Source: a virus. From it: a DNA stretch of 64,000 nt. Of this stretch, positions 586 through 62,950 are shown piece after piece. The notes beneath the pieces were generated by a model, which was given only the letters and a program-made list of their open reading frames with translations, was not told the DNA's origin and made no database searches. A program made the translations under genes and the position numbers. How positions within the stretch are numbered: position 1 is the stretch's first letter; each line of letters starts with the position of its first letter. The DNA is taken from IMG/VR virus record IMGVR_UViG_3300012931_000667, positions 13,901-77,900 of that record, one strand, 5' to 3'.

Positions 586-767
586 ATCCTTAAATCCTTA
601 TTACTATATAGTTAAAAACTTTTATATTAACCCTTTTTTCTATACTTTACTATTTTTTACTATAAAATCAATAAACTATCTGTATCCTCTAATATCTACC
701 ATCATTTAATTATTATTATCATAATATAAAATATTTTAGTATTTCACTCTTGATTTTAGTGTCCATA

Positions 768-1530: not shown

Positions 1531-2313
1531 TTATCCTTCATAATACATCCAATGAAATCCACCAGCTTTATTTATTTCTCCTCTACAACAAGCTCCAATA
1601 CTTGTTCTATTAACTTTTGTTATTTTTGAAGCTTCATGTATAGATTCATAAACAATATTAGTTTCAATATATAAAACTTTTTTTGAGTTCACATTCAAGT
1701 TCCCTCTTTTACCATACATATGATTTTTTTCACCTAATTGTGCTATAGACATTTTATCTTTATGTTCTTTAGTAAATTTTTTACCTTTTCTTAATATACT
1801 CATTTTTGTTTTTGTTTCTTCTGAAGCTTTTTTTCCTAATTTTGTTTTTCTCATTTTTTCTTTAGATTTTTCAGTATGACTTCTTCCTAACCATATTTTA
1901 TTTCCTTTTTTAATTCTTCTTAAATTGTCTTTAACTTTTTCTGATCTTGGTTTCCCTAATTTTGATAAACTTATTTTTAATTTTGCTTCTTCAGTTAAAC
2001 CTCCATTAGTACCTCCTTCTTTCATATTGTACCCATATTCTTTATTTAGTGTCTTATAGAAACTAATGTAGAAACATTCCAAAATATTTAGAATTAATTG
2101 ATCTTTTCTATTTATGTTTGATAATATCTCAAATTTAAAATTATCTTTTCCATAAGTAATCCAAGATTTTTGTAGATGTTTATTATAATGCTTATTATTA
2201 TTTAATAATTTTTTATGATCTTTCCATCTATTATCAATATTTATGCTTTGACCTATATACTTTTTATTATTAATTAAATTAGTAATACAGTAAATCCCAA
2301 TAATTTTTTCCAT
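1531..2313 (-). CDS. free-standing GIY-YIG homing endonuclease with NUMOD3/NUMOD1-type DNA-binding repeats
   Basis: GIYCITN...KYIGQS..R, E and GYN catalytic motifs; HTEKSKEKM repeats; C-terminal YESIHEAS...CC...AGGFHW. Confidence 0.92.
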   Translation of the reverse strand: MEKIIGIYCITNLINNKKYIGQSINIDNRWKDHKKLLNNNKHYNKHLQKSWITYGKDNFKFEILSNINRKDQLILNILECFYISFYKTLNKEYGYNMKEGGTNGGLTEEAKLKISLSKLGKPRSEKVKDNLRRIKKGNKIWLGRSHTEKSKEKMRKTKLGKKASEETKTKMSILRKGKKFTKEHKDKMSIAQLGEKNHMYGKRGNLNVNSKKVLYIETNIVYESIHEASKITKVNRTSIGACCRGEINKAGGFHWMYYEG

Positions 2314-2429
2314 TATTTTTCCCTTTTAAGTGGTTCCCGCCACTAATACAAATAGTTAAAAAATTAAAAGAGTTAGCTTAAAATTATTAATTTCGAGCAA
2401 CAGGCGGGAACCTGCTGTCCTCTTCTAAT
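2314..2429 (-). ncRNA. structured leader copy A (three-way junction + SD-proximal hairpin, kissing loops UUCCCG/CGGGAA)
   Basis: GAAGAG-GA-CAGCAGG[TTCCCG]CCTGTTG-CTCGAAATT[AAT]AATTTTAAG-CTAA-CTCTTT..TAACTAT..AGTGG[CGGGAA]CCACT-TAAAAGGG..ATG; three homologous covarying copies elsewhere in the window. Confidence 0.85.
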
Positions 2430-5042
2430 TTATAAAGTTTTATCAATATTATTAAAGGAAATTCCCTCCATTCCTAAAAATCCTGCTACTAATCTTTTAG
2501 TTACTAGTTGTCTTTTATGAATAAAAGAACTTAAAATTAAATCCCCTAGTTCATTTTCTTGTATTGCTAATAATCTTTTCATTTTTGTTTGTCTTTTACA
2601 AATTACATTAAAATTTTTATTTTCATACATGTCAATACCATAAATTAGTAATAAATAATCTTTTCCTCTTACTTTAAGAGAAGGCTGTATCATATATCCA
2701 TTTTGAGCATATTGCCTTTGTACTAATGGTTTAAATACAAAACCTTCACCACCATTTTCAGTATACTCTATCCATGAACTAATACAATTATTTATTGATT
2801 TAGGATCATTAAGATTTACATGAATAGACTCTACACATTTAAACTTATCATTTTCAATTGATCGAATGTATCCTAATTTTTCAATGTTGTCAAGTTCTTT
2901 CCCTAATATCCAATCATACTTATTACCAACTTTATCCCCTAATGCTAATATATTAAATACTCTGCAATATGGTTCTTCTTCTGCAATATAATTCTGTAAT
3001 GACTGCATATATTTATCTACATTAATTAATCCATTAACATCTTTTTTAATTGTTCTATCTATAGTAGCACATTCTCCTATACCTTGGAACTTATTTCTAA
3101 TTAACCATTTTCCTTTTAATGACCATGGCATCATTTCAGTATCAAGTATAGTAACGTCATATTCTAATTGATCTACTATTGAATCATAGAATTCTTGATC
3201 CATACTATCATCATCAAAAAATTTATTACCATTACGAGTATTAATATAAATCAATTTATCCATATTAAAATCTTTAGCTATATCTAATGATTTAAATAGT
3301 AATATATGTGCTCGACTACCCATGTACTTCTTTTCTGCTACAAGTTCAGTTATTCCCCTTGATCTATAATAATCAAAAACTGTAGTAGGGTATTCTAGAT
3401 AATCATTATGATCCTTACTAAAGTCTACAGGAGGAACAGTAGGAGCAATATAAAATATATTAGCACTATTAGTAAGGAATGCTCGATTAGAGTATCCATT
3501 AGAAATCTCTTTACCCTCTATGATATAATCACTAACAGGTAAATATATTTGAGAATGAAAACTAGATGTTTTATAACTAAAAGGTAACTTTCTATTAGGA
3601 TCAGAATTAGCAATTACAGCTAATATAGATGGAGTATCATAATAAGGTACTCCACATCCAGGCATATTTGCTCCATCAAGAATCCAACTATGAATAATAC
3701 TTTCTTTTTTATCTTCTGCTAGTTCAATTCCAGCATAACTAATTTCATATTTATTTTTTTCAAAATAACTACTAACTTCACTTTTGAATTGATCCCATGT
3801 AAACTCTATTTTATGCCCTTTATCCCTATAACCATTATTTCCTTGAATCTTTCCACTATCAAATAATTTTGAATTGTAATCATAATTAGGAGTAGTTAAT
3901 ATTATTACTTTAGGATTAATTACATTTATAATAAAATCCATTAATTGTTTTCTTTCATGGTCATCAAAATGCTCTATGATTTCAGATAACAATACAATAT
4001 CTATAGATTGTGGTAGTATTGATACATTAGGATATAGTAAATTCATTTGATAAAAATGAATATGCTTAAATTTATCTAATCCTCTTCCTGCTTTTTCTGA
4101 TGCATCATAAGCATAGATATCAAAAGGAATATTTTCATCTTTTAATTTATCATTTATCATTACTGATAATCTACCATTAGCACAACCATAATCAATAATA
4201 TTTAAATGTTCTGTTACTACTTGTTTTTCTTTTTGCATTAAACTGTAGTACATTACTACCTGATCACTAATCCATTTATGTCGTAATTGATGTAATGTAG
4301 TAAAATCAATATATAGTTGTTCCTTTACTACCTCTTGATCATCATCAATATCAATTACTGATTCTATAAATTTTTTCTCTAATGACTTATTACTTCTGCA
4401 TAATGTACGAATAATATTTTTAGTATAACTATTATCACTTTCTAACCATTGACACATTTTGATATACTTATCTATTTGTTCATCAGAAATAGGAAACATA
4501 TTATAATTAAAAGTAGAGTATAAACAAATCATAAATACTTTCTGTAATGCTACCTGTAATGTACTTTTAATGGTTAGATGTAATCCATAAGCTACATCAA
4601 AATTATCATATGTTTTAAATACATTAAAACCTAATGAACTAAAGACATTATGAATATCTCCAAAATCACATAAAAATGGTCCTATATCAAAACATATATA
4701 CCTTTCTCTAATGGATTCATCTTTAAGAACTGTACCCTTATTCATAAAATTAATAATTTCATCTTTATAATTATTAGTAAAAGCAGAACGTAAACACTCA
4801 TAGATTGAATTTAAAAAATATGGAGTAACCCCATATAACTGATATGAATTATATACTTCTTCATTTCTTTCTTTTAGTGTAGGAAGTAATTCAGTGAAAC
4901 TTAAATTAGAAGTAATACTATACACATTTCCTAAGTATTCTCCTCTTATTTTATTTTTATCATAAATTGATCCTGGCTTTTTGCATAAAAGGTATGAGAA
5001 TATTGAATCATTTTCCTCACCAGAATAAATATTAAAAAACAT
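2430..5042 (-). CDS. Hen1-type RNA 2'-O-methyltransferase fused to a Pnkp-type RNA ligase domain
   Basis: Hen1 N-domain-like FSYLLCKKP; MTase motifs IIDYGCANG, SEIIEHF, TTPNYDYN, YRDKGHKIEFT. Pnkp ligase motifs YIAPTVPP, LEYP..FDYY...G...EKKYMGSRA, EGFVFKP, QPSLKVRGKDYL.LIYG. Confidence 0.88.
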   Translation of the reverse strand: MFFNIYSGEENDSIFSYLLCKKPGSIYDKNKIRGEYLGNVYSITSNLSFTELLPTLKERNEEVYNSYQLYGVTPYFLNSIYECLRSAFTNNYKDEIINFMNKGTVLKDESIRERYICFDIGPFLCDFGDIHNVFSSLGFNVFKTYDNFDVAYGLHLTIKSTLQVALQKVFMICLYSTFNYNMFPISDEQIDKYIKMCQWLESDNSYTKNIIRTLCRSNKSLEKKFIESVIDIDDDQEVVKEQLYIDFTTLHQLRHKWISDQVVMYYSLMQKEKQVVTEHLNIIDYGCANGRLSVMINDKLKDENIPFDIYAYDASEKAGRGLDKFKHIHFYQMNLLYPNVSILPQSIDIVLLSEIIEHFDDHERKQLMDFIINVINPKVIILTTPNYDYNSKLFDSGKIQGNNGYRDKGHKIEFTWDQFKSEVSSYFEKNKYEISYAGIELAEDKKESIIHSWILDGANMPGCGVPYYDTPSILAVIANSDPNRKLPFSYKTSSFHSQIYLPVSDYIIEGKEISNGYSNRAFLTNSANIFYIAPTVPPVDFSKDHNDYLEYPTTVFDYYRSRGITELVAEKKYMGSRAHILLFKSLDIAKDFNMDKLIYINTRNGNKFFDDDSMDQEFYDSIVDQLEYDVTILDTEMMPWSLKGKWLIRNKFQGIGECATIDRTIKKDVNGLINVDKYMQSLQNYIAEEEPYCRVFNILALGDKVGNKYDWILGKELDNIEKLGYIRSIENDKFKCVESIHVNLNDPKSINNCISSWIEYTENGGEGFVFKPLVQRQYAQNGYMIQPSLKVRGKDYLLLIYGIDMYENKNFNVICKRQTKMKRLLAIQENELGDLILSSFIHKRQLVTKRLVAGFLGMEGISFNNIDKTL

Positions 5043-14785: not shown

Positions 14786-14811
14786 TCTATTTCTCCTAAT
14801 TAAATAGTTAT

Positions 14812-15846
14812 TTATACATAAAATTGTAATATTTCTTCAATAAATTTTTCTTCCCAATAAGGAATTCTAATTAAGTTAATATTATTATTTTTACAATATT
14901 CATTTTTAGTACTATCCCTTTTTTTAATGAGAATAAGATTTTCTTCCCATCCAAATAAATTAATAGCTTCATAGTGCTGTCTACCATCAAATTCTATTAA
15001 ATACTTTAACTTAACTTTTTCTTTATCTTCAAAAATAGCAAAATCAAAGAATAAGGAATAAACATATTTACAATCCTTAATTTTATATTCCTTAATATAA
15101 AAAATATCATTTTTATTTAGATATTGGGTTATTAAAGTTGCTCCTTTTGATTCTTTTCTATTACTAGTACAAATAGAGCATCCAGAATTAAGAATTACCC
15201 TTGTTTTTATACTTGTATACCACTCATGACCACATTCTTTATTTTTCCACCATGCTTTTTTATCAGTTTTAGGATAAATTCTTTTAGGATCAAGACCTAA
15301 TTTATTATTTTTTTCATAATCCCATTCTAATAATAATTCTGGATACTTAAAATATAGAGATTTTTCAATATTATTACAAATAGAATTAGATTTACCAATT
15401 TGTATCATTCCACAATCATAACATTGATGTAACTGTATTTTCTTATTCCTTAGTCTTCCACTTAAAATTTCAAATTCTTTTCCACAATCACATCTAACAA
15501 GATAAATACATTCCTGTCTTTTAGAATCAACTCCTATTTTTTTTAAAACTAATAATTTATCAAATTTCTGTCCAACTAAATCTTTTTGATATGCTTTACC
15601 CATATTTATATAACTACATTTTTTACAACCTTCTCCTAATAAATCTTTAGAAACACTATGCCAGAAATTTCCATGTAAAAAACAAGTGTATTCTACTAAA
15701 GTTTTAGTAGTATTATATGTTTCATTAAATAATCCTATAACTCCTTTTTCATTTTTATATCTTCCAGTTAAAATAATAGGATTTTCTTTATTTTTCCAAA
15801 TTTCATTATGTCTAAAAATAATTTCTTGTTCTGTTAATTTTCTCAT
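14812..15846 (-). CDS. Zn-ribbon + PD-(D/E)xK/Vsr-like endonuclease, probable free-standing homing endonuclease
   Basis: Repeated Cys/His modules (CFLHG, CKKC, CDCG, CGHEW, CSIC); C-terminal FDFAI...IEFDGRQH...D..KNEYC..NNI.LIRIPYW. Confidence 0.8.
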   Translation of the reverse strand: MRKLTEQEIIFRHNEIWKNKENPIILTGRYKNEKGVIGLFNETYNTTKTLVEYTCFLHGNFWHSVSKDLLGEGCKKCSYINMGKAYQKDLVGQKFDKLLVLKKIGVDSKRQECIYLVRCDCGKEFEILSGRLRNKKIQLHQCYDCGMIQIGKSNSICNNIEKSLYFKYPELLLEWDYEKNNKLGLDPKRIYPKTDKKAWWKNKECGHEWYTSIKTRVILNSGCSICTSNRKESKGATLITQYLNKNDIFYIKEYKIKDCKYVYSLFFDFAIFEDKEKVKLKYLIEFDGRQHYEAINLFGWEENLILIKKRDSTKNEYCKNNNINLIRIPYWEEKFIEEILQFYV

Positions 15847-16742: not shown

Positions 16743-16772
16743 ATATAAATAGTTACTCTTTATAAATAAATA

Positions 16773-17268: not shown

Positions 17269-20200
17269 TTAATCTATAGCTTTAAATTGTCTACGAGGGA
17301 ACTCCCAATTTCTACGAGTAATATTCCATCCACTTATCTTTGTATAAAAGCCAACAACACGAGTTAAATAATCAGTAATTTCTTTTCCACAAATGGGACA
17401 TATCTTTTGTTTACCAAAAGAACTATGACCATCTACACATTCACTATATACAGAATTCAAAGCAAAAAGTTCACATCCAGATTTAATAGCATAATCTATT
17501 ATTTTTTTATTTTGAGTAGTAGTAGTTTTTTCTCCTAAATTAAAGAAACAAATAGAACCACCTGTATATAATTTTTGATATTTACCATCTATTTCCATTC
17601 TTTCCCATATTGATTTATCTTCCCATAAAGGAATAAATTGATTAGAATATAATTCATAAGGTACACAACTTTCACCATAAATTAATTTATCAATTTGTGT
17701 TAATCTTATCGCCATAGTTTCACCAGGAACTTGTTCTATATTAAATGGTGTTTTTAATTCATTAGTCCAATAAGAAGCTTTATCATTAAGAAGTTTTAAT
17801 GATTCCTCAATTAAATCTTTATTAAAATCACCAAATTTTTTAAGCATTGTTTCTTTTGTTTCAGTTAATCCAATAATACCATAAGTAGAAAACATTTTTT
17901 TTAATTGAATCCAACCTAAAGTCATTAATGGTTGCATTCCTTTATCAATAGTATCTTGTAACATCTTTCTATGAGAATAAAGTATTTTAGTAGCATCATC
18001 TATTCTTTCTGATAATATTTTAAAAAATGAATCATAATCAGTAGCTTCAAGAGCTATACGATTAAAATTAATTAATACTACTCTATGAGAACCTAAACTA
18101 ATAGCACTCCCACCAAAAGAATTTGATAGTCCTCCTAAATTAAACATATCAGCATCACTTAATAATCGACAATTATGTGTTATTACTCCATTAGGTAAAG
18201 TAAAATAAGGTTCTTCTTTATTTCTCATTTCAAAACAATATACACTTTCTTTATTATATTCTTTTATTTCTTCAATAGAGTTTATTTTAAAATAAATATT
18301 TCCATTTCTAAAAATATATACATTTTCTTGTTTTCTTTTTGATTTTCTATCATACCACCTAATAGAATAAGATGGATAATTTCTATTATAGAAATTATCT
18401 CTAATAAATACTTTTTCATTTGTTCTATCTACACAATCAATACAAGAAACTTTACCTAATGAAGTTAATAAAGTTTCCATATTAGAAATTAATTTTTTAG
18501 AAGAAGAATAAATTCTATTAGAGTTTCCACCATCTGTTAAATATAATCCTTTTAGGATACCCTTTCTAAAGTCTTTAGATTCTAGTAGACATTCAAGATT
18601 TAATTCTTTTTCATAAGAATAATTACCATATACCCAATATTTTATAAAATTATATAAATTAATATCATGAATACAAACATTATAACAATTATTTTTTAAT
18701 TCATTTTTATAAATATTTTTATTAATCCCCAATTGTTTAAGAGCAATTTCAAATATAGGAATTAACTCTTTATCTTTTTTAAGATTTAAAGAAAAACAAA
18801 TAATAGTTCCATTATTATCCTTATTTTTATAAGAACTTCCATCTCCTAAATAAGAACCTATTAAAATTCCTTGTTCATAAGTTAAAATACTTTTTTTATT
18901 ATATCTACCAGGAGTAGACTCATTTAATAGATTATTATTAAATAGTAAGTAATCATCCTCTGTTAATTCACATACTTTTTTATCTTTTTCTAATGTTAGA
19001 AAAATATGGTCTTCAGTTACAATCATTTCTTTTTTATTAGATGTGATAATTTTATACATTTTCTTATTTTCTCTATTAACTTTTATAGGATTTCCAAATA
19101 ACCAATTTCCATTATGAAAAATTCTTAAATTTATTCCATTTTTAGGCATTTCATATACTTCTTTTAATTTTTTTTCTTCTACTCCATTAGTACTATAAAT
19201 TAATACTTTTGTATCTTCATCAAAACAGCAAGAACTTATTTTATTACCTTCAGAAACATAAGTATGATATCTATAAACATCATGTTTACAATACTCTTTT
19301 TCAAAATCTTTATCTACTACATCAATTACACCATTAATATTTTTACGAGAAAGGTTAACTGTTGATACAGGAAAAGTATAAGGCTTTCCATTAGATAGAG
19401 GATCACCTTTATCAAAAAAATCCATATATAATTTTTCAAGATAAATAATATATTCAATAATGTAATTAATGTCTATTTTTTCAAAATACCAACCCATATT
19501 ATCTTTAGCTAATAAATTTTTAAGTTTTTCTCTATCAAATAAAGAGATATTGGTAAAAGGACTTTCAATATTATTTCTTGACATAGGATTATTAACACTA
19601 TGTACAAAAGTTTGATAGCAATTAATAATATATTTTTGTAATTCTTTAGATTCTTGTAATTGTTCTAAAGTAACTTTTTCTCGATAATAAAGAACATGGC
19701 AAATATCAAAAAAGAAAGTACCTATAGCGATAGCCCCTGCTAATTGAGAAGACATTTGATGAATAATTTCTTTTAAAGAATCAATATAACTAGAAACTCT
19801 ATGAGGAGGATTAGATTTTAATTGCCCAAAAGGAACCCCTTGAATAACAATTTTTGATGCATCAAAAGCCCAACAATAAGGTAATAATAGTTTACCACTA
19901 TCATGAATAGCTAAAGACATATCATACATTTCACCAGTTAATTTTTTAGCTTCTTTTTTACCATATAAATCTTTAATTTTTCTATATAAAGCTCTATACC
20001 CTACCATTTTATATAAAGGAATTGATGATTCATATTGTAATCCAGCTAATGTTTTTCCACTTTTATTAGCATTAGTATCTAAAGAAGTATCTGCTAAATT
20101 ACTATTTGTTAATAACTCAATATTATTTATAAAGTCAAAATTATCTTTACTTAACCCATGCATTTTTAATATTTTTTCTGTAATATCATCATTCACAATT

Positions 20201-20280
20201 CCATACTTTTTATATAAAGAATAATTTAAAGTATTCTTTACTCTTTTAACTGAAGCATTAATACCAGAGTCTTCAAACAT
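17269..20280 (-). CDS. nrdD: anaerobic (class III) ribonucleotide reductase, intein-containing
   Basis: IHD, PYC, ESPFTNIS, FPVST, SSC/CRL, EQVPGE, CxxC and YLTRVVGFY glycyl-radical motif. Start taken at MFEDSG (20280), right after nrdG. Confidence 0.95.
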   Translation of the reverse strand: MFEDSGINASVKRVKNTLNYSLYKKYGIVNDDITEKILKMHGLSKDNFDFINNIELLTNSNLADTSLDTNANKSGKTLAGLQYESSIPLYKMVGYRALYRKIKDLYGKKEAKKLTGEMYDMSLAIHDSGKLLLPYCWAFDASKIVIQGVPFGQLKSNPPHRVSSYIDSLKEIIHQMSSQLAGAIAIGTFFFDICHVLYYREKVTLEQLQESKELQKYIINCYQTFVHSVNNPMSRNNIESPFTNISLFDREKLKNLLAKDNMGWYFEKIDINYIIEYIIYLEKLYMDFFDKGDPLSNGKPYTFPVSTVNLSRKNINGVIDVVDKDFEKEYCKHDVYRYHTYVSEGNKISSCCFDEDTKVLIYSTNGVEEKKLKEVYEMPKNGINLRIFHNGNWLFGNPIKVNRENKKMYKIITSNKKEMIVTEDHIFLTLEKDKKVCELTEDDYLLFNNNLLNESTPGRYNKKSILTYEQGILIGSYLGDGSSYKNKDNNGTIICFSLNLKKDKELIPIFEIALKQLGINKNIYKNELKNNCYNVCIHDINLYNFIKYWVYGNYSYEKELNLECLLESKDFRKGILKGLYLTDGGNSNRIYSSSKKLISNMETLLTSLGKVSCIDCVDRTNEKVFIRDNFYNRNYPSYSIRWYDRKSKRKQENVYIFRNGNIYFKINSIEEIKEYNKESVYCFEMRNKEEPYFTLPNGVITHNCRLLSDADMFNLGGLSNSFGGSAISLGSHRVVLINFNRIALEATDYDSFFKILSERIDDATKILYSHRKMLQDTIDKGMQPLMTLGWIQLKKMFSTYGIIGLTETKETMLKKFGDFNKDLIEESLKLLNDKASYWTNELKTPFNIEQVPGETMAIRLTQIDKLIYGESCVPYELYSNQFIPLWEDKSIWERMEIDGKYQKLYTGGSICFFNLGEKTTTTQNKKIIDYAIKSGCELFALNSVYSECVDGHSSFGKQKICPICGKEITDYLTRVVGFYTKISGWNITRRNWEFPRRQFKAID
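18172..19227 (-). mobile_element. intein (~352 aa) with LAGLIDADG endonuclease in NrdD
   Basis: Starts CFDEDTKV, ends VYCFEM...LPNGVITHN followed by Cys+1. LAGLIDADG blocks LIGSYLGDGS and LKGLYLTDGG. Removal restores SSCCRL. Confidence 0.95.
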
Positions 20281-20281
20281 A

Positions 20282-20845
20282 CTATTCGTTTTCTCCCTTG
20301 AATGTATAATAGTTATCAATCGATATTTGATTAAAATTAGAATCATATAACTTTTGATTTTTAGATGCAAAAATTAATTGATTATTTACTTTACCCATAC
20401 TATTATCTTTTAATTCCTCTATATATTTTCCACATTTATAAAATTGTGCTCCATATATTCCCATATCCATAACTTCATTAATTAAATATCCAGTATAAAT
20501 ACATATATCAAACTTTTTATTACTAAAATTAATGTTTAATAAACTTTTTATAAAATTTCTATTATCAATAAATAAAGGATCACCACCTTCAAATACTATT
20601 TTATTTGTATGTTGTTTGTTACATTCCCTTTCTAAAGCAAACCAAAAATCATAATAATCATAATCTTGATCATTTAAATCAATAATTATATCTTTACTTT
20701 GTTCACAACTATAATTATAATTTTGAAATTCTTTATTATGACAATTTTTACAATTATGCTCACATCCTAATGTATAAACTACAACAGCATTGTCTTGTGA
20801 AGGATAATCTTGCCAAGAAACAGAAAAGGGATAAACTACTTTCAT
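20282..20845 (-). CDS. nrdG: class III RNR activating enzyme (radical SAM)
   Basis: GCEHNCKNCHN, FEGGDPL, YTGY, KCGKY, ASKNQ; adjacent to nrdD. Likely start MKVVYPF. Confidence 0.92.
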   Translation of the reverse strand: MKVVYPFSVSWQDYPSQDNAVVVYTLGCEHNCKNCHNKEFQNYNYSCEQSKDIIIDLNDQDYDYYDFWFALERECNKQHTNKIVFEGGDPLFIDNRNFIKSLLNINFSNKKFDICIYTGYLINEVMDMGIYGAQFYKCGKYIEELKDNSMGKVNNQLIFASKNQKLYDSNFNQISIDNYYTFKGENE

Positions 20846-24192: not shown

Positions 24193-24235
24193 AAAATATC
24201 CTACTTAAATAGTTAAAAAAATATAAAAAGAAAGA

Positions 24236-25045
24236 TTATTTATAGTTTCTAATAATAATTTCAGATTCCTTTTGATTACTTTTTATAGAAGAATTTCTCA
24301 TACCATAGGTAACTTCTATTTTATTAATATAAAAATTAGAGTATAAATCTCTAATATAATTAGAATCATCATAAGATAAACACCATTTATGATTACAATT
24401 TTTTAAATTTTCATATAAGGTAATATGATTAAAATTATTTTGTAATATCCCTTTTTTTCCATATAATTTCTTTACTGAATAATATGGTGGATCAATATAA
24501 ATAAAAGTATTATTATTAGTATTATAAAGAAATTTACTATAATCATCATTATTAATTTCTACATTTTTTAATAAAGAAGATGCAAATTTTAATCTTTCAA
24601 TACTAGAAATTGTAAATCTTTTTTCATATGATTCTTGAGAATACCCTCCTGCTTCTAATATGCCAGAAAAAGTAATTCTATTTAATATAAAAAACAATGT
24701 TGCAATTTCTAAATCATTAGTTGAAATAGAAATTTTATTAATAATATAATTATATAAGTCTTTACCATTAGTATACTTATTTTTTAATTCATAGACATTA
24801 TTATATAATTGATCATAATTTTCCTTTAATTGTTTCCAAAATATAAATAAATATGAATATAAATCATTTACAATAATTTTTGATGGTTTATACTGTTGTA
24901 GAACATATAATAAAGAAGAAGCTCCCCCTAGAAAAGGTTCTATATATTCATCAAAATTATCTGGAAAATAAGGTACTATATACTTTAATAATTTTGATTT
25001 TCCACCTGGATATCTAAGAGGACTTTTTATATATTTTGTCAACAT
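24236..25045 (-). CDS. D12-class N6-adenine DNA methyltransferase (Dam-like)
   Basis: SPLRYPGGKS, EPFLGGAS, VNDL, YIDPPYY, SYD. Confidence 0.93.
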   Translation of the reverse strand: MLTKYIKSPLRYPGGKSKLLKYIVPYFPDNFDEYIEPFLGGASSLLYVLQQYKPSKIIVNDLYSYLFIFWKQLKENYDQLYNNVYELKNKYTNGKDLYNYIINKISISTNDLEIATLFFILNRITFSGILEAGGYSQESYEKRFTISSIERLKFASSLLKNVEINNDDYSKFLYNTNNNTFIYIDPPYYSVKKLYGKKGILQNNFNHITLYENLKNCNHKWCLSYDDSNYIRDLYSNFYINKIEVTYGMRNSSIKSNQKESEIIIRNYK

Positions 25046-28951: not shown

Positions 28952-28961
28952 AAATAAATAG

Positions 28962-29936
28962 TTATCCTCTTTCTTTTTGTATTCCTTCTAGCATTGAATC
29001 TAATAAATCCATATTACTTTCTTTATACTTTATTCTAGAATCCATTAATCCTATTAAATTTAATGACTCATAAATTATTCTTAATTTATCCTCTTTGTAA
29101 TAACACTTTATTTCATTAGACCTTAAATCAATTTCACCTAGTTCTACGACAGTAACAAGATTCCAATTTAATTGTAATTTACCTATTTCTTTTTTAAATT
29201 TAGCTTTCCATCCTAAATCTAAATAAGAAATATTATTAATATTAAATATTAATTGATCCATAGTTGAAAATTGATCAATTAATTTTAAGAATAGCTGTTG
29301 AGGTAAAGTAGGAATAGCCCCTATAATATTATCTGAAACATCACCATAAAAGCATTTATTAAAACAGATATTAGAGTAGGTAGGCTTATAATTAAATACC
29401 TCTTCAAATTTATCTATATCATATATTAATTTATCTTGTAAATAGAGTTGATCAACATTTGTGTTTATTCCTCTAAACCAATCTTGATCCCCACTAATAA
29501 GAAGAACATTCTTATCTTTATTTTGGGCGTAATCAATTATATATGAAACATAGTCATCAGCTTCAAGAAATTTTTGTCTGTATATGAAGCTATTATTTCT
29601 ATAAAAATGTAGTATTAGTTCTAAATTATCTAATGATTTATAAAACCATTCTGGTTGTTCTGCTCTAGTTTTTTTATAGTTTTCATCTAATGATTTTCTA
29701 TATTTTTGTATAGAAGATTTAGCATTATCAAAAAGCCAATATATTATTAACTCATCATTATTTTCAGCATATTTTTTAATATAGGAATCCATCATCTTAA
29801 AGAACATTAATATTCCTTCAAGATGGTATTCCTCTTTACCTTTTTTCACTATTTGTTGACACTCATTTCCATAAGTGGAATGAAACATCATATTATAAAC
29901 ATCAACAATAAATATATTATACTTTTTTTCAATCAT
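28962..29936 (-). CDS. 5'-3' exonuclease / flap endonuclease (T4 RNase H-like)
   Basis: IVDVYN, LFD, YKKTR, EADD, SGDQD, GDVSDNI. Confidence 0.9.
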   Translation of the reverse strand: MIEKKYNIFIVDVYNMMFHSTYGNECQQIVKKGKEEYHLEGILMFFKMMDSYIKKYAENNDELIIYWLFDNAKSSIQKYRKSLDENYKKTRAEQPEWFYKSLDNLELILHFYRNNSFIYRQKFLEADDYVSYIIDYAQNKDKNVLLISGDQDWFRGINTNVDQLYLQDKLIYDIDKFEEVFNYKPTYSNICFNKCFYGDVSDNIIGAIPTLPQQLFLKLIDQFSTMDQLIFNINNISYLDLGWKAKFKKEIGKLQLNWNLVTVVELGEIDLRSNEIKCYYKEDKLRIIYESLNLIGLMDSRIKYKESNMDLLDSMLEGIQKERG

Positions 29937-32017: not shown

Positions 32018-32031
32018 TAGTTAATAACTAT
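32018..32031. promoter_or_regulatory. back-to-back TAACTA(T) motifs between divergent genes
   Basis: TAGTTA-A-TAACTAT palindrome between the starts at 32005 (-) and 32055 (+). Confidence 0.5.
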
Positions 32032-32054
32032 TTTTAATATAGTAGGATAGTATC

Positions 32055-34656: not shown

Positions 34657-34772
34657 ATTAAGAGGACAGTAGGTTGACGCCTATTGCTAAAATTATTCCA
34701 GTTTTAGCTAACTCTTTTATTTTTTTTAACTATATAAAATAAAGTTGCGTCAACAACTTAAAAGGAAAAATT
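34657..34772 (+). ncRNA. structured leader copy B (kissing loops UUGACG/CGUCAA)
   Basis: AAGAG-GA-CAGTAGG[TTGACG]CCTATTG-CTAAAATT[ATTCC]AGTTTTAG-CTAA-CTCTT..TAACTAT..AAGTTG[CGTCAA]CAACTT-AAAAGG..ATG. Confidence 0.85.
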
Positions 34773-35624
34773 ATGGAAGAAAAAGTATTGTTACTTGAAG
34801 ATCGTAGATTTTATGTTTATATTTATCTAGACCCTAGAAAACCTGGAAATTACAACTATGGTGAATACCATTTTGATTTTGAACCTTTTTATGTTGGTAA
34901 AGGAAGTGGATATAGAGCTTGGAGTCATTTGCAATCTTATATGTTAAAAGAAACTGGAAATTTAAGAATTAATAAATTTAGAAAAATTATTAATAATGGA
35001 TATAAAATAGAACCTATAATAATTAAAACTAATATTTTAGAAAAAGAATCTTTTTATTATGAAAAATTATTAATTAAATTGATAGGAAGATATGATAAAA
35101 ATAAAGGACCATTAGTTAATCAAACAGATGGTGGAGAGGGTACTTGTGGAACTATTTTTTCTAAAGAAGCTATAGAAAAAATGAGACAAGCTAATTTAGG
35201 TAGAAGATATTCCAATGAAATTAATAAGAAAAAAGGAAGAAAAGGAAGATTAGTTTCAGAGGAAACTAAAGAAAAACATAAACAATATAAAGTTTCTGAA
35301 GAAGTAAAGAGAAAACAATCTAAAAATAAAGAAGGAAATAAAAATCCTAGATTTGGAAAACCAGCAATGAATAGAGTTAAAGTTATTTATGTAAATGAGA
35401 ATAAAGAATTTAATTCTTTATTAGAAGCTGGAGAGTACACTAATAGGTGTTCAAGTGATATTCACAAATGTTGTTCTGGAAAAGTAAAATCAATAGGAAG
35501 AAATAGTGGAAATAAATTTTATTTTATGTATGTATCAACTTATATTAGTTTATCTAATGAAGAAAAAAAACAATTATTATCTAATTTTGATTTAACACAA
35601 CAATTTATCTTAAACCATATATAA
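34773..35624 (+). CDS. free-standing GIY-YIG-family endonuclease (FYVY...FYVGKG subtype) with NUMOD-type repeats
   Basis: FYVYIYLDPR...PFYVGKGSGYRA, E..LIK.IGR, LVNQTDGGEG, SEETKEK repeats. Confidence 0.88.
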   Translation: MEEKVLLLEDRRFYVYIYLDPRKPGNYNYGEYHFDFEPFYVGKGSGYRAWSHLQSYMLKETGNLRINKFRKIINNGYKIEPIIIKTNILEKESFYYEKLLIKLIGRYDKNKGPLVNQTDGGEGTCGTIFSKEAIEKMRQANLGRRYSNEINKKKGRKGRLVSEETKEKHKQYKVSEEVKRKQSKNKEGNKNPRFGKPAMNRVKVIYVNENKEFNSLLEAGEYTNRCSSDIHKCCSGKVKSIGRNSGNKFYFMYVSTYISLSNEEKKQLLSNFDLTQQFILNHI

Positions 35625-41442: not shown

Positions 41443-41565
41443 TTTATAGGGACAGCAAGGCGCTAACCTTGTTGCTAAGGTAATTCCAGCTTTAGCTAAC
41501 CTATTTTTTAATATTTTTAACTATTTAAAAATAGAAGTCTTTAGCGAGACTTAAAAGGAAAAATT
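41443..41565 (+). ncRNA. structured leader copy C (kissing loops CGCUAA/UUAGCG)
   Basis: ATAGG-GA-CAGCAAGG[CGCTAA]CCTTGTTG-CTAAGGT[AATTCCA]GCTTTAG-CTAA-CCTAT..TAACTAT..AAGTCT[TTAGCG]AGACTT-AAAAGG..ATG. Confidence 0.85.
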
Positions 41566-42516
41566 ATGGAAAATAGATTTCAAGAGGCATTTAGTAAATT
41601 ACCATCAGTTGATTTAGAGCATCAAATTCATTTGAATAGGTATATTAAATTTATTAGTAGCAGACTAGAAAGAAAATTTGAATATAAAAAAGGTTTGTGT
41701 AAACATCATGTACATCCTGTTTCTTTTGGAGCAAATAAAGGTTTTAAAGAAAAATGGAACATAATTGTACTAACAGAAAGAGAACATTTTATTGCTCATT
41801 TAATTCTATATAAATGCTATGGTGGAAAAATGACAAGAGCCTTTTTTATGATGAATAATGGAAAGAATATTTTAAGTGGTAATTATAGTAATTTAAATTC
41901 TAAACAATATGAAAAATTAAGAAAAGAGTATACAGAAAAAATAAGTGGAAAAGGTAATCCTATGTATGGTAAAGAAATGAAGGAAATAAATAAAAAATTA
42001 AGAAAAATTCTTTGGACAGGTAAAAATAATCCTATGTATAATTCAAAAAGATATAAAAATAAAAATCCTTTCTATGGTGAACATCATACTGAAGAAACTA
42101 AGATTAAATTAAAAAAAATAGATAAAACAAAAATAATGAAAAAAGTTATATTATTAAATACTAAAAAAATATTTAATAGTATAACAGAAGCTAGTAAGAT
42201 AACTAATATAAGTGCTAGTTCCATAATAGGTTGTTGTTCACATAATCCAAAAATTACTTGTACTCATTATGGATATGAAAATTATTATTGGTTATATATA
42301 GAAGAGTATGACCCTAATTTTGATTATAGCTATTTATTAGATTCTAAAAAAATTATTTGTATAGAAAAAAATGAAATATTTAATAGTGTAAAAGAATGTT
42401 CATTAAAAATGAATATTTCTGAAACATATTTATCATTATGTTGTAATAATAAAGTAGATTCTGCAAAAGGATATCATTTTATGAAGTATAATGCATATAA
42501 AGGAAAAAATGATTAA
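41566..42516 (+). CDS. free-standing HNH homing endonuclease with NUMOD-type repeats
   Basis: KHHVHP...NIIVLTEREHFIAHLIL; GKNNPMY and HTEETK repeats; two FNS..E....I..CC modules. Confidence 0.9.
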   Translation: MENRFQEAFSKLPSVDLEHQIHLNRYIKFISSRLERKFEYKKGLCKHHVHPVSFGANKGFKEKWNIIVLTEREHFIAHLILYKCYGGKMTRAFFMMNNGKNILSGNYSNLNSKQYEKLRKEYTEKISGKGNPMYGKEMKEINKKLRKILWTGKNNPMYNSKRYKNKNPFYGEHHTEETKIKLKKIDKTKIMKKVILLNTKKIFNSITEASKITNISASSIIGCCSHNPKITCTHYGYENYYWLYIEEYDPNFDYSYLLDSKKIICIEKNEIFNSVKECSLKMNISETYLSLCCNNKVDSAKGYHFMKYNAYKGKND

Positions 42517-51167: not shown

Positions 51168-53192
51168 ATGGAAATTAGTACAACCTGTCCTGATTGTGGT
51201 ACTAAATTTTCTATTAATTTATGTTTAAATACTATAATTGCTAGTGTTCATTGCCCTAATCCATTATGTATGAAAGAAGCTATTGTAGAAGATAATGATG
51301 ATGAATTCGATGATGAATCTAACTATTTTATTTTATGGACTTAAAGGAGAATTATTTAATGTCTGAAGTTACAAAAATACTACCACAAAATTTTCTTCCT
51401 GCAAAAAAGGAAGTAAGTAAATTAGAAAATACTTATTGGTATAATAAACAAACTGATAGTCAAGAAAGAAATGAATCTGATGAAAATTTAGCATTACTTT
51501 ATCTACTATTAGCTGATTTTGCTTCTTTTGCAGAAAACAAGCAGTATGCATTAGGTGATAAACTATTAATGAAAAAGGGTACTGAAAGTTGGCAAATTAT
51601 CCTTGGCGAATATGGTAAAAAAGTTGTATATGACTCTGAAGCTTCTTGGATTGAAATTCAAGATATGAATCAAAAAGATTATGAAGAATATACTATTAAA
51701 AGCAATAAAGAATATAAGGATAAGAAAGGGTATAAATAATGGCAAAGAAAATACTTAAAAAAAATGTTCATCAATTCTATGACAATGAAAAGAAGATACT
51801 TGACAAGAATACTCAAAATGAGTACACTCAATCATTAGAAACTGAAATTGAGCAATATTTTAGATTAAAAGATGTAGTAAACAAAGTACTAAATTCTTGT
51901 AAACCTTACTATACTGATGTTCAAAGTACATTAAGAAATATGTGGGAAAAAGAAGTAAGAATAATTACATTAAGAGGAACTATATATAATCATTTAGGTT
52001 AATATGAAAAATCTTCCTCATAATATAGCTTTTTTAGAAGAATTAAAATTAATTGATATAGATATTAATACTTACTCTATAGAAAAAATATTAATGTCTT
52101 TTTTAGCTTATGTTCAATCTGGTGATCCAGAACATAGAATTGACTCTGCATTAAGAATACTAAATAAAGAAGGTTAATTATGCCCACAATAGAAGTTGAT
52201 GATGATACTTATAATTTTTTAATAAAGTGTCAAAAAGAGTTAAATGAACAGGACAATAGATGCACAAGCAATGTGATTTTCTTTAATCAATATGAAGATA
52301 GAAATTATGCTGAATATCATGATGGTTATCATTCTGATGGTTATGAATGGTATAACCCTAATTGGGATAATGGTGATAGAGGGGTAGAATCAGATGAAGA
52401 ATTAGTAGATTGTTTATTAGAATATGGATATGAGGAAGAGATAGAAGCTTTAGATATATTATATACTAAAGATATTGAAAATATGATTGATAGTGAAAAA
52501 CCTACATTAAAAAAATGGTTTATTGATATGCTAGATGAAGATTTACAATATTCAGGACATTCTAAATTAATAGAATATATTGAAGATTACATAGAACAAA
52601 TTAATGATTCTATAGGTGAAGAAATAGAAGTTACAATTGAAGATTTTGATGCTTGGAAAGATATTACTAAAATTAGTTATAGTAAAAATTATAAAATTGC
52701 AGAAAGTGGATTATTTAGTTTCTTTGAGTCCGATATTGCAGAACATAAAAGATTAGATAGTCATAACTATAGAGAAAATACAAGAAGTTTTGGGGGGAGC
52801 ATACAAAGAACCCCGAGTATGCTTAAACTATTAGAATGGTTAACGAATCAAGATTTTACTAATAAGGAAGTAGTATGATTTCTAAAGAAGATTTTACAAT
52901 TCAAATGAATAACTTAGTTACTTATAGACAAAAACAAGATGAAAGATTAGAACATTTAAATGCGGCTTTTCCTGATGCTATGAGTATGCTAGATGATGTA
53001 TCAGAAAGATTATTTGATCAATATGTTTATTTTTTAAGTGCAGAAATGGATGATAGTAATGATTTTATAGGATACTATATTTTTGATAATGACATGGGAA
53101 AAAGTAAATTAAAAGTTACTGTAGGTAGTAAAGATTTTATACTTGATAATATTGATGCTCTTTGGAAAGTAATTACTTTTGGTAAGGAGTAA
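51168..53192 (+). other. hypothetical ORFs (Zn-ribbon protein, 51335, 51739, 52180, 52875)
   Basis: Co-oriented ORFs; CPDC/CPNPLC in the first. Confidence 0.55.
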
Positions 53193-61578: not shown

Positions 61579-61691
61579 AAAGGGACAACAGGCTACTAAC
61601 CTGCTGATTGAAAGTAACTCCTTCAATCTAACCTTTTTATTTTTTAACTATATTAATACAGACTTTAGTAGAGTCTTAAAAGGAAAAAATT
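61579..61691 (+). ncRNA. structured leader copy D (kissing loops CUACUAA/UUAGUAG)
   Basis: AAAGG-GA-CAACAGG[CTACTAA]CCTGCTG-ATTGAA[AGTAACTCC]TTCAAT-CTAA-CCTTT..TAACTAT..AGACT[TTAGTAG]AGTCT-TAAAAGG..ATG. Confidence 0.85.
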
Positions 61692-62462
61692 ATGAGTGAA
61701 ACAAAAGTATGTAAAACTTGTAAAGAAGAAAAAGATATAATCAATTTTTATATTGATAAAAATGGTTATATAAGTGGTAATTGTAGAGCATGTATAAAAA
61801 TAATTAAAAAACAATATAATGATTCTCATAAAGAACAACATAGTAAAAGTAGGAAAAAATATTATTATTCTCATTTAAATCAAGAAAAAGAATATAGACA
61901 AAAATATAATAATTCTAATAAAGAAAAGAATAAAGAAAAGAATAAAAATTATTATTTAAAAAATAAATCAGACAGAGATAAGTATAGTCATGATTACTAT
62001 CTTTCTCATTTAGATGAAAGAAAAGATTATCATAAAAAATTTTATATAGAAAATAAAGAATATTATAATAATTTTAGAGAAAATTATAAAGAAAAAAGAA
62101 ATAAATATCAAAGAGATCGTTTAAAAATTGATATTAATTTTCGTCTTTCTACTAATTTAAGAATAAGAGTACAGAATGCTGTTAAAAGAGGAACCAAAAC
62201 TGGTTCAGCAGTACAAGATTTAGGATGTTCTATTGAATTTTTTAAAGAATATATAGAAAAACAGTTTAAATTCGGTATGACTTGGGAAAATTGGGGTATT
62301 ACAGGATGGCAATTAGATCATATAAAACCATTATCAGGATTTGATTTAACTAATAGAGAAGAATTTTTACAAGCAGTACATTATACAAATTATCAACCTT
62401 TATGGTATGATGAAAATATTAGAAAAGGTGGAGTAAGAAAACCTAGAATTAAAAAAGAGTAA
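61692..62462 (+). CDS. free-standing HNH endonuclease (N-terminal Zn finger, helical linker, C-terminal HNH)
   Basis: CKTC...CRAC; LGCSIE...GMTWENWG..WQLDHIKPL...HYTNYQPLW..EN..K. Confidence 0.88.
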   Translation: MSETKVCKTCKEEKDIINFYIDKNGYISGNCRACIKIIKKQYNDSHKEQHSKSRKKYYYSHLNQEKEYRQKYNNSNKEKNKEKNKNYYLKNKSDRDKYSHDYYLSHLDERKDYHKKFYIENKEYYNNFRENYKEKRNKYQRDRLKIDINFRLSTNLRIRVQNAVKRGTKTGSAVQDLGCSIEFFKEYIEKQFKFGMTWENWGITGWQLDHIKPLSGFDLTNREEFLQAVHYTNYQPLWYDENIRKGGVRKPRIKKE

Positions 62463-62527: not shown

Positions 62528-62950
62528 ATGTTAGAAACAAATAAAATTTATAATATGGATTGCATTGATGGTATGAAACTATTAGATGATAATATTATAG
62601 ACTCTATTAATCTATCAAAAGGCAATAGTCATCCATGCGTAAAACCTATATCTTTGCTCACCTATTTATGTAACTTGACAAAAACTCCTACTGGTGGTAT
62701 TGTATTAGACTTATTTGGTGGTTCAGGTTCTATTATTCCCACATATATAATAACTGATAGACCATATATTATATTTGAAAAAGAAGCAGAATATATACCT
62801 ATTATAGAAGCTAGAGCTAAAGTATGGTTAAAAGCTAAAGAAGAAGATAAAATATTTATAGATGATCATAATAAAGTAACCATTATTAATAAGAAAAAAG
62901 AAACAAAAAGTACTAATAGTGATGATACTAATATTTTAGATTTAATATAA
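62528..62950 (+). pseudogene. N6/N4 DNA methyltransferase remnant with in-frame internal deletion
   Basis: IYNMDCIDGMKLL...IDSI joins directly to NSHPCVKP...VLDLFGGSGS; the DPPY motif and target-recognition region are missing. Confidence 0.75.

Follow-up and report, generated by a model that had tools for sequence, protein, structure and literature searches.

Homing endonucleases are DNA-cutting enzymes that their carrier phages must restrain. To our knowledge, only a few T-even phages have so far provided examples of such control, in the form of ad hoc hairpins. The leaders of the T4 genes for I-TevI, I-TevII, I-TevIII, and segB and of Aeh1 mobE sequester the ribosome-binding site and contain an internal late or middle promoter, and the T4 late genes soc, e, 39, 25, and 26 possess inhibitory hairpins that are bypassed by a late promoter (PMC2988022, section 12). 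In the case of a seg gene of Aeromonas phage 25, a hairpin is located just upstream of a ribosome-binding site that is not masked (PMC2988022). A catalytic RNA is represented by GIR1, a relative of group I ribozymes of roughly 180 nt with proven catalysis, which occurs in nuclear twin-ribozyme introns (PMC2219692).

The leader described here precedes four homing endonuclease genes in the genome of an uncultured wetland phage. Its regulatory principle is already known from the homing endonucleases of T-even phages (PMC2988022); its fold is new and much more elaborate.

Four copies of one leader in a phage genome

The analyzed stretch of 64,000 nt (the window) comprises positions 13,901-77,900 of the record IMGVR_UViG_3300012931_000667. 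A sequence-only reading of the window had described four copies of a structured leader that share one layout, and had proposed to build a covariance model from them and to tabulate the genes downstream. Both the coordinates and the shared layout were confirmed. With R1, the covariance model derived from the four junctions, the window copies reach 71-77 bits (E about 1e-17 to 1e-18), compared with 14.5 bits (E 0.17) for the next-best match in the window, and the whole 77.9-kb record contains these four copies and no more.

Each copy consists of a three-way junction (P1-GA-P2-P3-CUAA-P1'), a T-tract, the box TAACTATWT, the hairpin P4, an A-rich strand, and the ATG of the endonuclease gene. The distance from the stop codon of the upstream gene to P1 is only 3-13 nt, which agrees with the initial estimate of at most about 15 nt. 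The junction has a length of 57-59 nt, and P4 follows 30-40 nt further downstream. When the segment of each junction is folded separately, the three-way junction is the structure of minimum free energy in all four copies; nested minimum-free-energy folding of the full leaders, which cannot represent pseudoknots, resulted in mixed structures. The initially quoted stems P1, P3, and P4 are correct, save for one internal mismatch in P3 of copy D. The register of the junction (GA/CUAA or GAC/UAA) is ambiguous because the letters involved never vary. The elements of the four copies are as follows.

34660-34716, plus strand: three-way junction of copy A (R1 75.7 bits; minimum-free-energy fold)
34660-34664/34712-34716, plus strand: stem P1 of copy A (minimum-free-energy fold)
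34667-34686, plus strand: P2 of copy A, preceded by GA, with loop L2 (UUGACG) at 34674-34679
34687-34707, plus strand: P3 of copy A, with loop L3 (AUUCC) at 34695-34699
34708-34711, plus strand: CUAA linker of copy A (minimum-free-energy fold)
34717-34735, plus strand: T-tract and promoter-like box of copy A, the box TAACTATAT at 34727-34735 (box placement statistics; box-to-P4 spacing)
34742-34759, plus strand: hairpin P4 of copy A, with loop L4 (CGUCAA) at 34748-34753, the exact complement of L2
34760-34778, plus strand: A-rich strand AAAAGGAAAAAUU of copy A with Shine-Dalgarno sequence, including the AUG at 34773; UGGAA at 34774-34778 complements UUCCA of L3
41446-41504, plus strand: three-way junction of copy B (R1 71.2 bits; minimum-free-energy fold)
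41461-41466 and 41482-41488, plus strand: loops L2 (CGCUAA) and L3 (AAUUCCA) of copy B
41505-41526, plus strand: T-rich tract and box of copy B, the box TAACTATTT at 41518-41526 (box placement statistics)
41535-41552, plus strand: hairpin P4 of copy B; its loop UUAGCG at 41541-41546 complements L2
41553-41571, plus strand: A-rich strand of copy B with Shine-Dalgarno sequence, AUG at 41566; UGGAA at 41567-41571 complements L3
61579-61636, plus strand: three-way junction of copy C (R1 76.5 bits), with L2 (CUACUAA) at 61593-61599
61637-61653, plus strand: T-tract and box of copy C, the box TAACTATAT at 61645-61653 (box placement statistics)
61660-61691, plus strand: P4 and A-rich strand of copy C with Shine-Dalgarno sequence; the loop UUAGUAG at 61665-61671 is the complement of L2
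2368-2424, minus strand: three-way junction of copy D (R1 72.8 bits; minimum-free-energy fold), with L2 (UUCCCG) at 2405-2410
2350-2367, minus strand: T-tract and box of copy D, the box TAACTATTT at 2350-2358 (box placement statistics)
2329-2344, minus strand: P4 of copy D; its loop CGGGAA at 2334-2339 is the complement of L2
2314-2328, minus strand: A-rich strand of copy D with Shine-Dalgarno sequence (from its coordinates)

Relatives and covariation of the three-way junction

Pattern scans for relatives of the four copies covered IMG/VR, metagenome contigs, and contigs from bacterial genomes. The loose first scan of the viral contigs and the scan of the bacterial genome contigs yielded mostly chance matches, which were filtered by R1 and the rule that L2 must pair with L4; filtering of all scans by R1 and structural rules provided a set of 76 distinct copies with an intact P1. 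The junction alignment comprises 34 copies (the four of the window and 30 from viral contigs), of which 33 are distinct and were used for the analysis of covariation.

Among the 33 distinct junctions, 95% of the pair cells are paired, compared with 71% in shuffles. Changes on both sides occur at 15 of the 20 pairs of the junction and amount to 149 cells, versus 41.6 in shuffles; none of 500 shuffles reached the observed count. When the pairing partners are slid by 1-3 columns, the fraction of paired cells falls to 29-50%. The linkers GA and CUAA are identical in all 34 aligned copies, and the closing G-C pair of P1 is also invariant. The sequences of P1 and P3 vary freely; P2 is nearly fixed (CAG.AGG/CCU.UUG), and its third pair is either G-U (25 copies) or A-C, a pair of the same shape (7 copies); copy C of the window has A-C instead of G-U. 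The excess of G-U over A-C pairs (41 versus 14) and the orientation of the element, which is always that of the nuclease gene, indicate that the folded molecule is the sense-strand RNA. The four copies are a real, covarying sense-strand RNA module, and confidence in the structure of the leader is very high; the covariation of the stems, the invariant linkers, and the G-U pairs on the sense strand had all been recognized in the sequence-only reading.

The same reading had not assigned the leader to a named family, and a search of Rfam 15 likewise produced no match in the window at the gathering threshold. At E values up to 10, two copies of the leader gave only chance-level matches (E at least 0.46). 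A BLAST search with the leader and a 3-kb stretch against 50,697 GenBank phage records returned nothing meaningful and no isolated phage with the motif, and no description of this fold was found in a full-text search of the literature.

Pairing of the loops with P4 and the translation start

In 62 of the 76 distinct copies, L2 has its exact reverse complement, L4, within 90 nt downstream. These 62 copies comprise 44 different loop sequences, and the four copies of the window are all exact. In the first set of copies, the complement of L2 was present in the copy's own downstream region in 28 of 28 cases but only in 24 of 756 comparisons with the regions of other copies. Among the approximately 120 pattern matches on bacterial genome contigs, it was present within 160 nt in only five, two of which (L185 and L199) are real copies; the other three are taken as chance. 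The near-identical leaders and endonucleases of contigs L142 and L144 differ by matched changes in L2 and L4 (UUCCAG/CUGGAA versus UCCCCA/UGGGGA), and one pair of P2 is changed on both sides as well. The L2/L4 pairs differ among all copies that share a genome, which is the case for the four copies of the window and for two copies each in L010, G001, L134, and L138.

The second loop, L3, pairs with the translation start. When L3 was compared with the 60 nt after P4 of matched and mismatched copies (20000 permutations), the longest complement had a mean length of 6.26 nt in matched and 5.11 nt in mismatched copies, and the mean duplex energies were -7.67 and -5.35 kcal/mol; in both cases, the observed value was reached by none of the 20000 permutations. 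Of 56 copies, 47 have their best pairing over the Shine-Dalgarno region or the start codon (e.g., UUCUCCAA/UUGGAGAA, UUUCCAUAA/UUAUGGAAA, and GUUUUCCA/UGGAAAAC). In the window, this pairing is modest: copies A and B form 5 bp (UUCCA/UGGAA over AUGGAA), copy C has a weak match to the Shine-Dalgarno sequence, and the search for a match between L3 and the start site of copy D gave nothing convincing. The A-rich strand after P4 (UAAAA-NN-UAAAA) is conserved even in copies that have a separate Shine-Dalgarno sequence further on. Both the pairing of L2 with L4 and that of L3 with the start site were missed in the sequence-only reading.

A subfamily of junctions is without P4 (L140:3206-3256(-), L156:491-548, L157:5053-5110, L166:2763-2816, and L167:1783-1837, and also L300, L313, and L325). 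Its members have a constant or palindromic L2 (UAGCU, CAUAUG, GAUAUC) and have kept the pairing of L3 with the Shine-Dalgarno sequence.

A promoter-like box between the junction and P4

The motif TAACTATWT is present at 13 sites in the 77.9-kb record. Although 93% of the record is coding, 12 of these sites are located 12-48 nt upstream of a gene start on the same strand, and eight of the 12 are without any three-way junction. With 12 sites against 11 expected, the motif is no more frequent than by chance, and the placement alone is non-random. Boxes without a junction that lie 12-30 nt upstream of a same-strand gene start are the following.

606-614, minus strand: TAACTATWT box without junction
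14802-14810, minus strand: TAACTATWT box without junction
16747-16755, minus strand: TAACTATWT box without junction
24207-24215, minus strand: TAACTATWT box without junction
28956-28964, minus strand: TAACTATWT box without junction
32025-32033, plus strand: TAACTATWT box without junction
51320-51328, plus strand: TAACTATWT box without junction

The box at 32025 is situated in a divergent intergenic region and heads the rightward gene block. Since other boxes head the genes for an exonuclease and for further functions in DNA metabolism, the label of a "late" promoter cannot be claimed for this phage. The U-tract and TAACTAT had initially been regarded as parts of the RNA; the position of 12 of 13 sites before gene starts, eight of them without a junction, is better reconciled with promoter DNA. 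Judged from this placement, TAACTATWT is most likely a promoter signal in the DNA that splits the module and not a part of the RNA, and it is likely the promoter consensus of this uncultured phage lineage.

A promoter-like box occupies the slot between the junction and P4 in about 50 of the 62 copies that possess P4. The motif is AACTAT in 33 copies, TATAAATA (the consensus of T4 late promoters) in 12, and ACTAAT or TACTAT in about ten; no box was found between the junction and P4 of L143. The spacing between box and P4 is tight, generally about 7-9 nt; by class, its median is 9 nt for AACTAT, 6-7 nt for ACTAAT/TACTAT, and 3.5 nt for TATAAATA, and the P4 stems of the TATAAATA class are longer. 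Copies of the AACTAT class, including the four of the window, possess a U-tract after P1', and such a tract occurs also at boxes of this phage that do not precede endonuclease genes. It is absent from the TATAAATA class, which argues against a general terminator, and many relatives are without one. A consensus scan called no intrinsic terminator at the leaders, and the U-tract of the window copies follows a P1 of 5 bp.

The same features bear on the possibility that the leader is plain punctuation, i.e., a branched terminator, an ordinary promoter, and a stabilizing 5' hairpin, and that the copies resemble each other because of recent duplication or gene conversion of cassette ends. Such an arrangement would be consistent with the U-tract after P1' in the four window copies, with the promoter-like box, and with the identity of 73-75% among the four copies. 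However, it is highly improbable in view of the compensatory changes in P1, P3, P4, L2/L4, and L3/start site across at least 60 copies, the eight other TAACTATWT sites of the genome that are without a junction, the many relatives without a U-tract, and the occurrence of the module before nuclease genes only.

A U-tract would also be relevant to a trans-acting, antisense-like control, in which the junction forms the 3' end of the upstream transcript, is released by termination at the U-tract or by processing, and binds to the short endonuclease mRNA. The kiss between L2 and L4 would nucleate the contact, L3 would then pair with the start, and translation would be throttled even from the gene's own promoter; the private loops would serve as addresses that prevent cross-talk. 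Nucleation by kissing loops is a known mode of plasmid antisense RNAs, and the differences among all L2/L4 pairs within one genome, the U-rich tract after P1' in the window copies, and the expected exposure of P4 at the 5' end of the short mRNA are all compatible with such a scheme. However, drift with compensation alone predicts loop diversity, so that differences within a genome are little informative when 62 copies comprise 44 types. The U-tract is absent from the TATAAATA class, and intramolecular pairing is kinetically favored. We consider control in trans quite unlikely.

Downstream genes and mobility of the leader

The four leaders of the window precede homing endonuclease genes of four kinds.

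34773-35624, plus strand: homing endonuclease A, LEM-3-type GIY-YIG, 283 aa (Pfam PF22945, 6.7e-11; PHROG homing endonuclease)
41566-42516, plus strand: homing endonuclease B, HNH-type with NUMOD1 and NUMOD3, 316 aa (homing endonuclease/HNH PHROGs)
61692-62462, plus strand: homing endonuclease C, endonuclease-VII-like, 256 aa (PHROG 1035 and 2340)
1531-2313, minus strand: homing endonuclease D, GIY-YIG with NUMOD3, 260 aa (Pfam; PHROGs)

A Pfam scan of 54 downstream proteins identified NUMOD3 (15), GIY-YIG (14, plus 2 of the LEM-3 type), DUF4379 treble clef (9), and DUF723 (5), together with HNH types and DUF559/Vsr-like domains; PHROGs name further downstream proteins as homing endonucleases. 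No unrelated function was encountered among the 54 proteins, whose Pfam matches are restricted to nuclease families and to DNA-binding families of homing endonucleases. The presence of GIY-YIG, HNH, DUF559/Vsr-like, and DUF4379 treble-clef genes behind the same leader substantiates the initial claim that the RNA is conserved independently of the protein family.

The leader is also separable from its gene. L142:130-420 and L135:1855-2145(-) have a near-identical leader up to the ATG, followed by different nucleases, and L142 and L144:6100-6390 encode the same nuclease behind leaders that differ, indicating that leader and reading frame reassort. Together with the association with several nuclease families, this reassortment supports the earlier suggestion of a portable module. 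In T4-like relatives, only a few bases separate the module from the 3' end of a preceding tRNA gene (L137:10054, L138:2011 and 7508, L141:1466, and L169:1762), which places the nuclease cassettes inside tRNA gene clusters. In a comparison intended to delimit the mobile unit, an empty site could not be aligned in the 160-kb relative G001, where the helicase homolog shares 33% identity and its neighbors are not homologous.

Each copy is preceded by an in-frame stop, and phage introns often hold such genes with internal late promoters (PMC2988022), which would be in agreement with the 5' part of a group I intron that carries the endonuclease gene in a peripheral loop. However, a conserved 3' core is absent, as the regions that follow the four endonuclease genes share no conserved sequence or structure, and the window has no match to Intron_gpI. 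The flanking genes are unrelated and do not represent two halves of one gene, and several relatives are located directly after tRNA genes. The group I intron was rejected on these grounds, and its probability is practically negligible.

The window encodes a fifth homing endonuclease (14812-15846, minus strand; HNH, PHROG 559, 9.9e-39), which is located 18 nt from the upstream gene and has no three-way-junction leader; the module is therefore not present on every endonuclease gene of the phage. The gene directly upstream of copy D (2430-5042, minus strand; 870 aa) combines a methyltransferase with a PNKP-type ligase/adenylyltransferase domain (Pfam PF16542, 1.1e-56), and its product resembles a phage version of an RNA-repair fusion of the Pnkp/Hen1 type. 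The gene that follows endonuclease C (62528-62950, plus strand; 140 aa) matches only the C-terminal end of an N6/N4 DNA methylase profile (155-220 of 221), and the gene at 24236-25045 (minus strand) covers only 59-323 of the 647 positions of a methylase PHROG; by these partial matches, both may represent methylase genes in the neighborhood of mobile nucleases that have been split or truncated. An anaerobic host is suggested by a large ribonucleotide reductase of the anaerobic type (17269-20370, minus strand; NrdD-like, PHROG 25611, 1.7e-146) and by the origin from a wetland metagenome. Two DNA sequencing runs of wetland metagenomes contain the stretch and may represent its source, whereas the search for runs containing it listed none from RNA. 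The DNA polymerase of the phage shares only about 24% identity with those of Vibrio siphophages.

A probable translational lock with promoter bypass

Because the loops pair with P4 and with the start site across a promoter-like box, the endonuclease is probably made only from the short transcript initiated at the box. The leader probably acts in cis as a lock on the translation of free-standing homing endonuclease genes, with a putative promoter at its center. When transcription of the upstream gene continues into the leader, the three-way junction of the resulting RNA would fold, L2 would kiss the loop of P4, and L3 would pair with the Shine-Dalgarno sequence or the surroundings of the start codon. 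The translation start would thus become part of a compact double pseudoknot, and the nuclease would not be made. The transcript from the internal box would be without the junction and carry P4 as a 5'-terminal hairpin, leaving the start site free, so that translation would be expected from the short transcript only. Stem-loops at the 5' terminus stabilize RNA, and P4 would do likewise on the short transcript.

We consider this model of a lock with promoter bypass likely and hold it with reasonable, though not high, confidence; a cis-acting control of the endonucleases, as already proposed in the sequence-only reading, is the most plausible role of the leader. The model presumes that the box is a working promoter and sets the start points of the short transcripts, and it predicts that the fold blocks ribosomes. 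The timing of expression is likewise inferred.

A simple lock leaves several features unexplained, namely the invariant letters of the junction, the near-fixed P2, the exclusive switching of its third pair between G-U and A-C, and the conservation of the A-rich strand, which point to a tertiary fold of defined shape, to a protein or ligand common to the copies, or to catalysis. The junction might therefore also be a specific receptor or catalyst, either a self-cleaving or processing RNA that frees the endonuclease mRNA or an aptamer for a protein or ligand that sets the lock. The invariance of GA, CUAA, and the closing G-C of P1, the two alternative states of the third P2 pair, and the A-rich strand that is kept even next to a separate Shine-Dalgarno sequence would fit this explanation, and a precedent exists in GIR1, a lariat-capping ribozyme situated 5' of the mRNA for a homing endonuclease (PMC2219692). 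However, the matches of two copies to Rfam at E values up to 10 include no ribozyme or riboswitch above chance level, the strands of the junction do not fit a hammerhead core, and the tertiary packing of the double pseudoknot may alone explain the conserved letters. In addition, the differences among the nuclease families make autoregulation by the encoded protein unlikely. An additional function as receptor or catalyst is therefore unlikely.

The hammerhead ribozyme is a three-way junction with the core strands CUGANGA, GAA, and a single H. It was rejected as a candidate because the corresponding strands are GA, none, and CUAA in 34 copies and because the two copies searched against Rfam at E values up to 10 gave no hammerhead match. 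The idea of a new ribozyme, which had been put forward initially, is not supported by any result of the analysis: besides the misfit of the junction strands, no ribozyme family matched these two copies. We grant a small yet appreciable chance to a bolder version, in which the GA/CUAA junction, the fixed P2 with its G-U/A-C wobble, and the A-rich strand would form an active site or receptor. In that case, the leader would represent either a small ribozyme of a new kind or a switch that senses a protein or a ligand, endonuclease mRNAs would be processed or gated by it, and the loop code of 6-7 nt could act in trans.

One RNA fold serves at least four unrelated nuclease families across phage lineages with different types of promoters. 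A natural double pseudoknot that is formed from a three-way junction and has a freely reprogrammable loop-loop code is attractive for RNA structural biology, and the code is attractive also for the design of orthogonal translational locks. Moreover, the leader can serve as an annotation marker for mobile nuclease cassettes and for the promoter boxes of uncultured phages.

Comparison with known regulatory RNAs

The riboswitches preQ1-II and SAM-II resemble the leader in that an A-rich strand with the Shine-Dalgarno sequence is drawn into a pseudoknot. However, their Rfam matches are at chance level (E 1.2 and 6.4), with scores far below the gathering thresholds, their architecture is different, and there is no indication of a ligand in the present case. 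Like the leader, GIR1 is structured around a three-way junction, contains pseudoknots, is located directly 5' of a homing endonuclease frame, and shapes the mRNA, but the catalysis that is proven for GIR1 is neither shown nor indicated here.

Kissing loops are also employed in the antisense control of plasmid replication by CopA-CopT of R1 and by RNA I-RNA II of ColE1. As in these systems, recognition would begin with a loop-loop pairing of 6-7 nt, whose sequence represents a specificity code. By contrast, the plasmid RNAs are encoded on opposite strands and act in trans, whereas the loops of the leader are located on the same sense strand and probably in the same molecule.

The T4 late genes soc, e, 39, 25, and 26 are translated from a shorter transcript only, as proposed for the leader, but their simple hairpins have no tie to mobile nuclease genes and do not constitute a conserved RNA family. 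The hairpin upstream of the seg gene of Aeromonas phage 25, as described in the review, has an arrangement that resembles that of P4.

The leaders of the homing endonucleases of T-even phages are the closest counterparts in principle. In both cases, the start site pairs with upstream RNA on read-through transcripts, and the targets are homing endonucleases of unrelated families. A promoter located between the pairing partners of the T-even leaders gives rise to a shorter transcript that is unable to form the block; the promoter-like box would play this part in the leader described here. However, the T-even leaders are single local hairpins without a shared sequence, whereas the leader described here possesses a conserved three-way junction with invariant junction letters and would mask the start by a loop-to-strand pseudoknot. 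It is further distinguished by the kiss of L2 and L4, a second contact that covaries fully and spans the putative promoter, and it forms a recognizable family that extends over many phage lineages with different promoter boxes.
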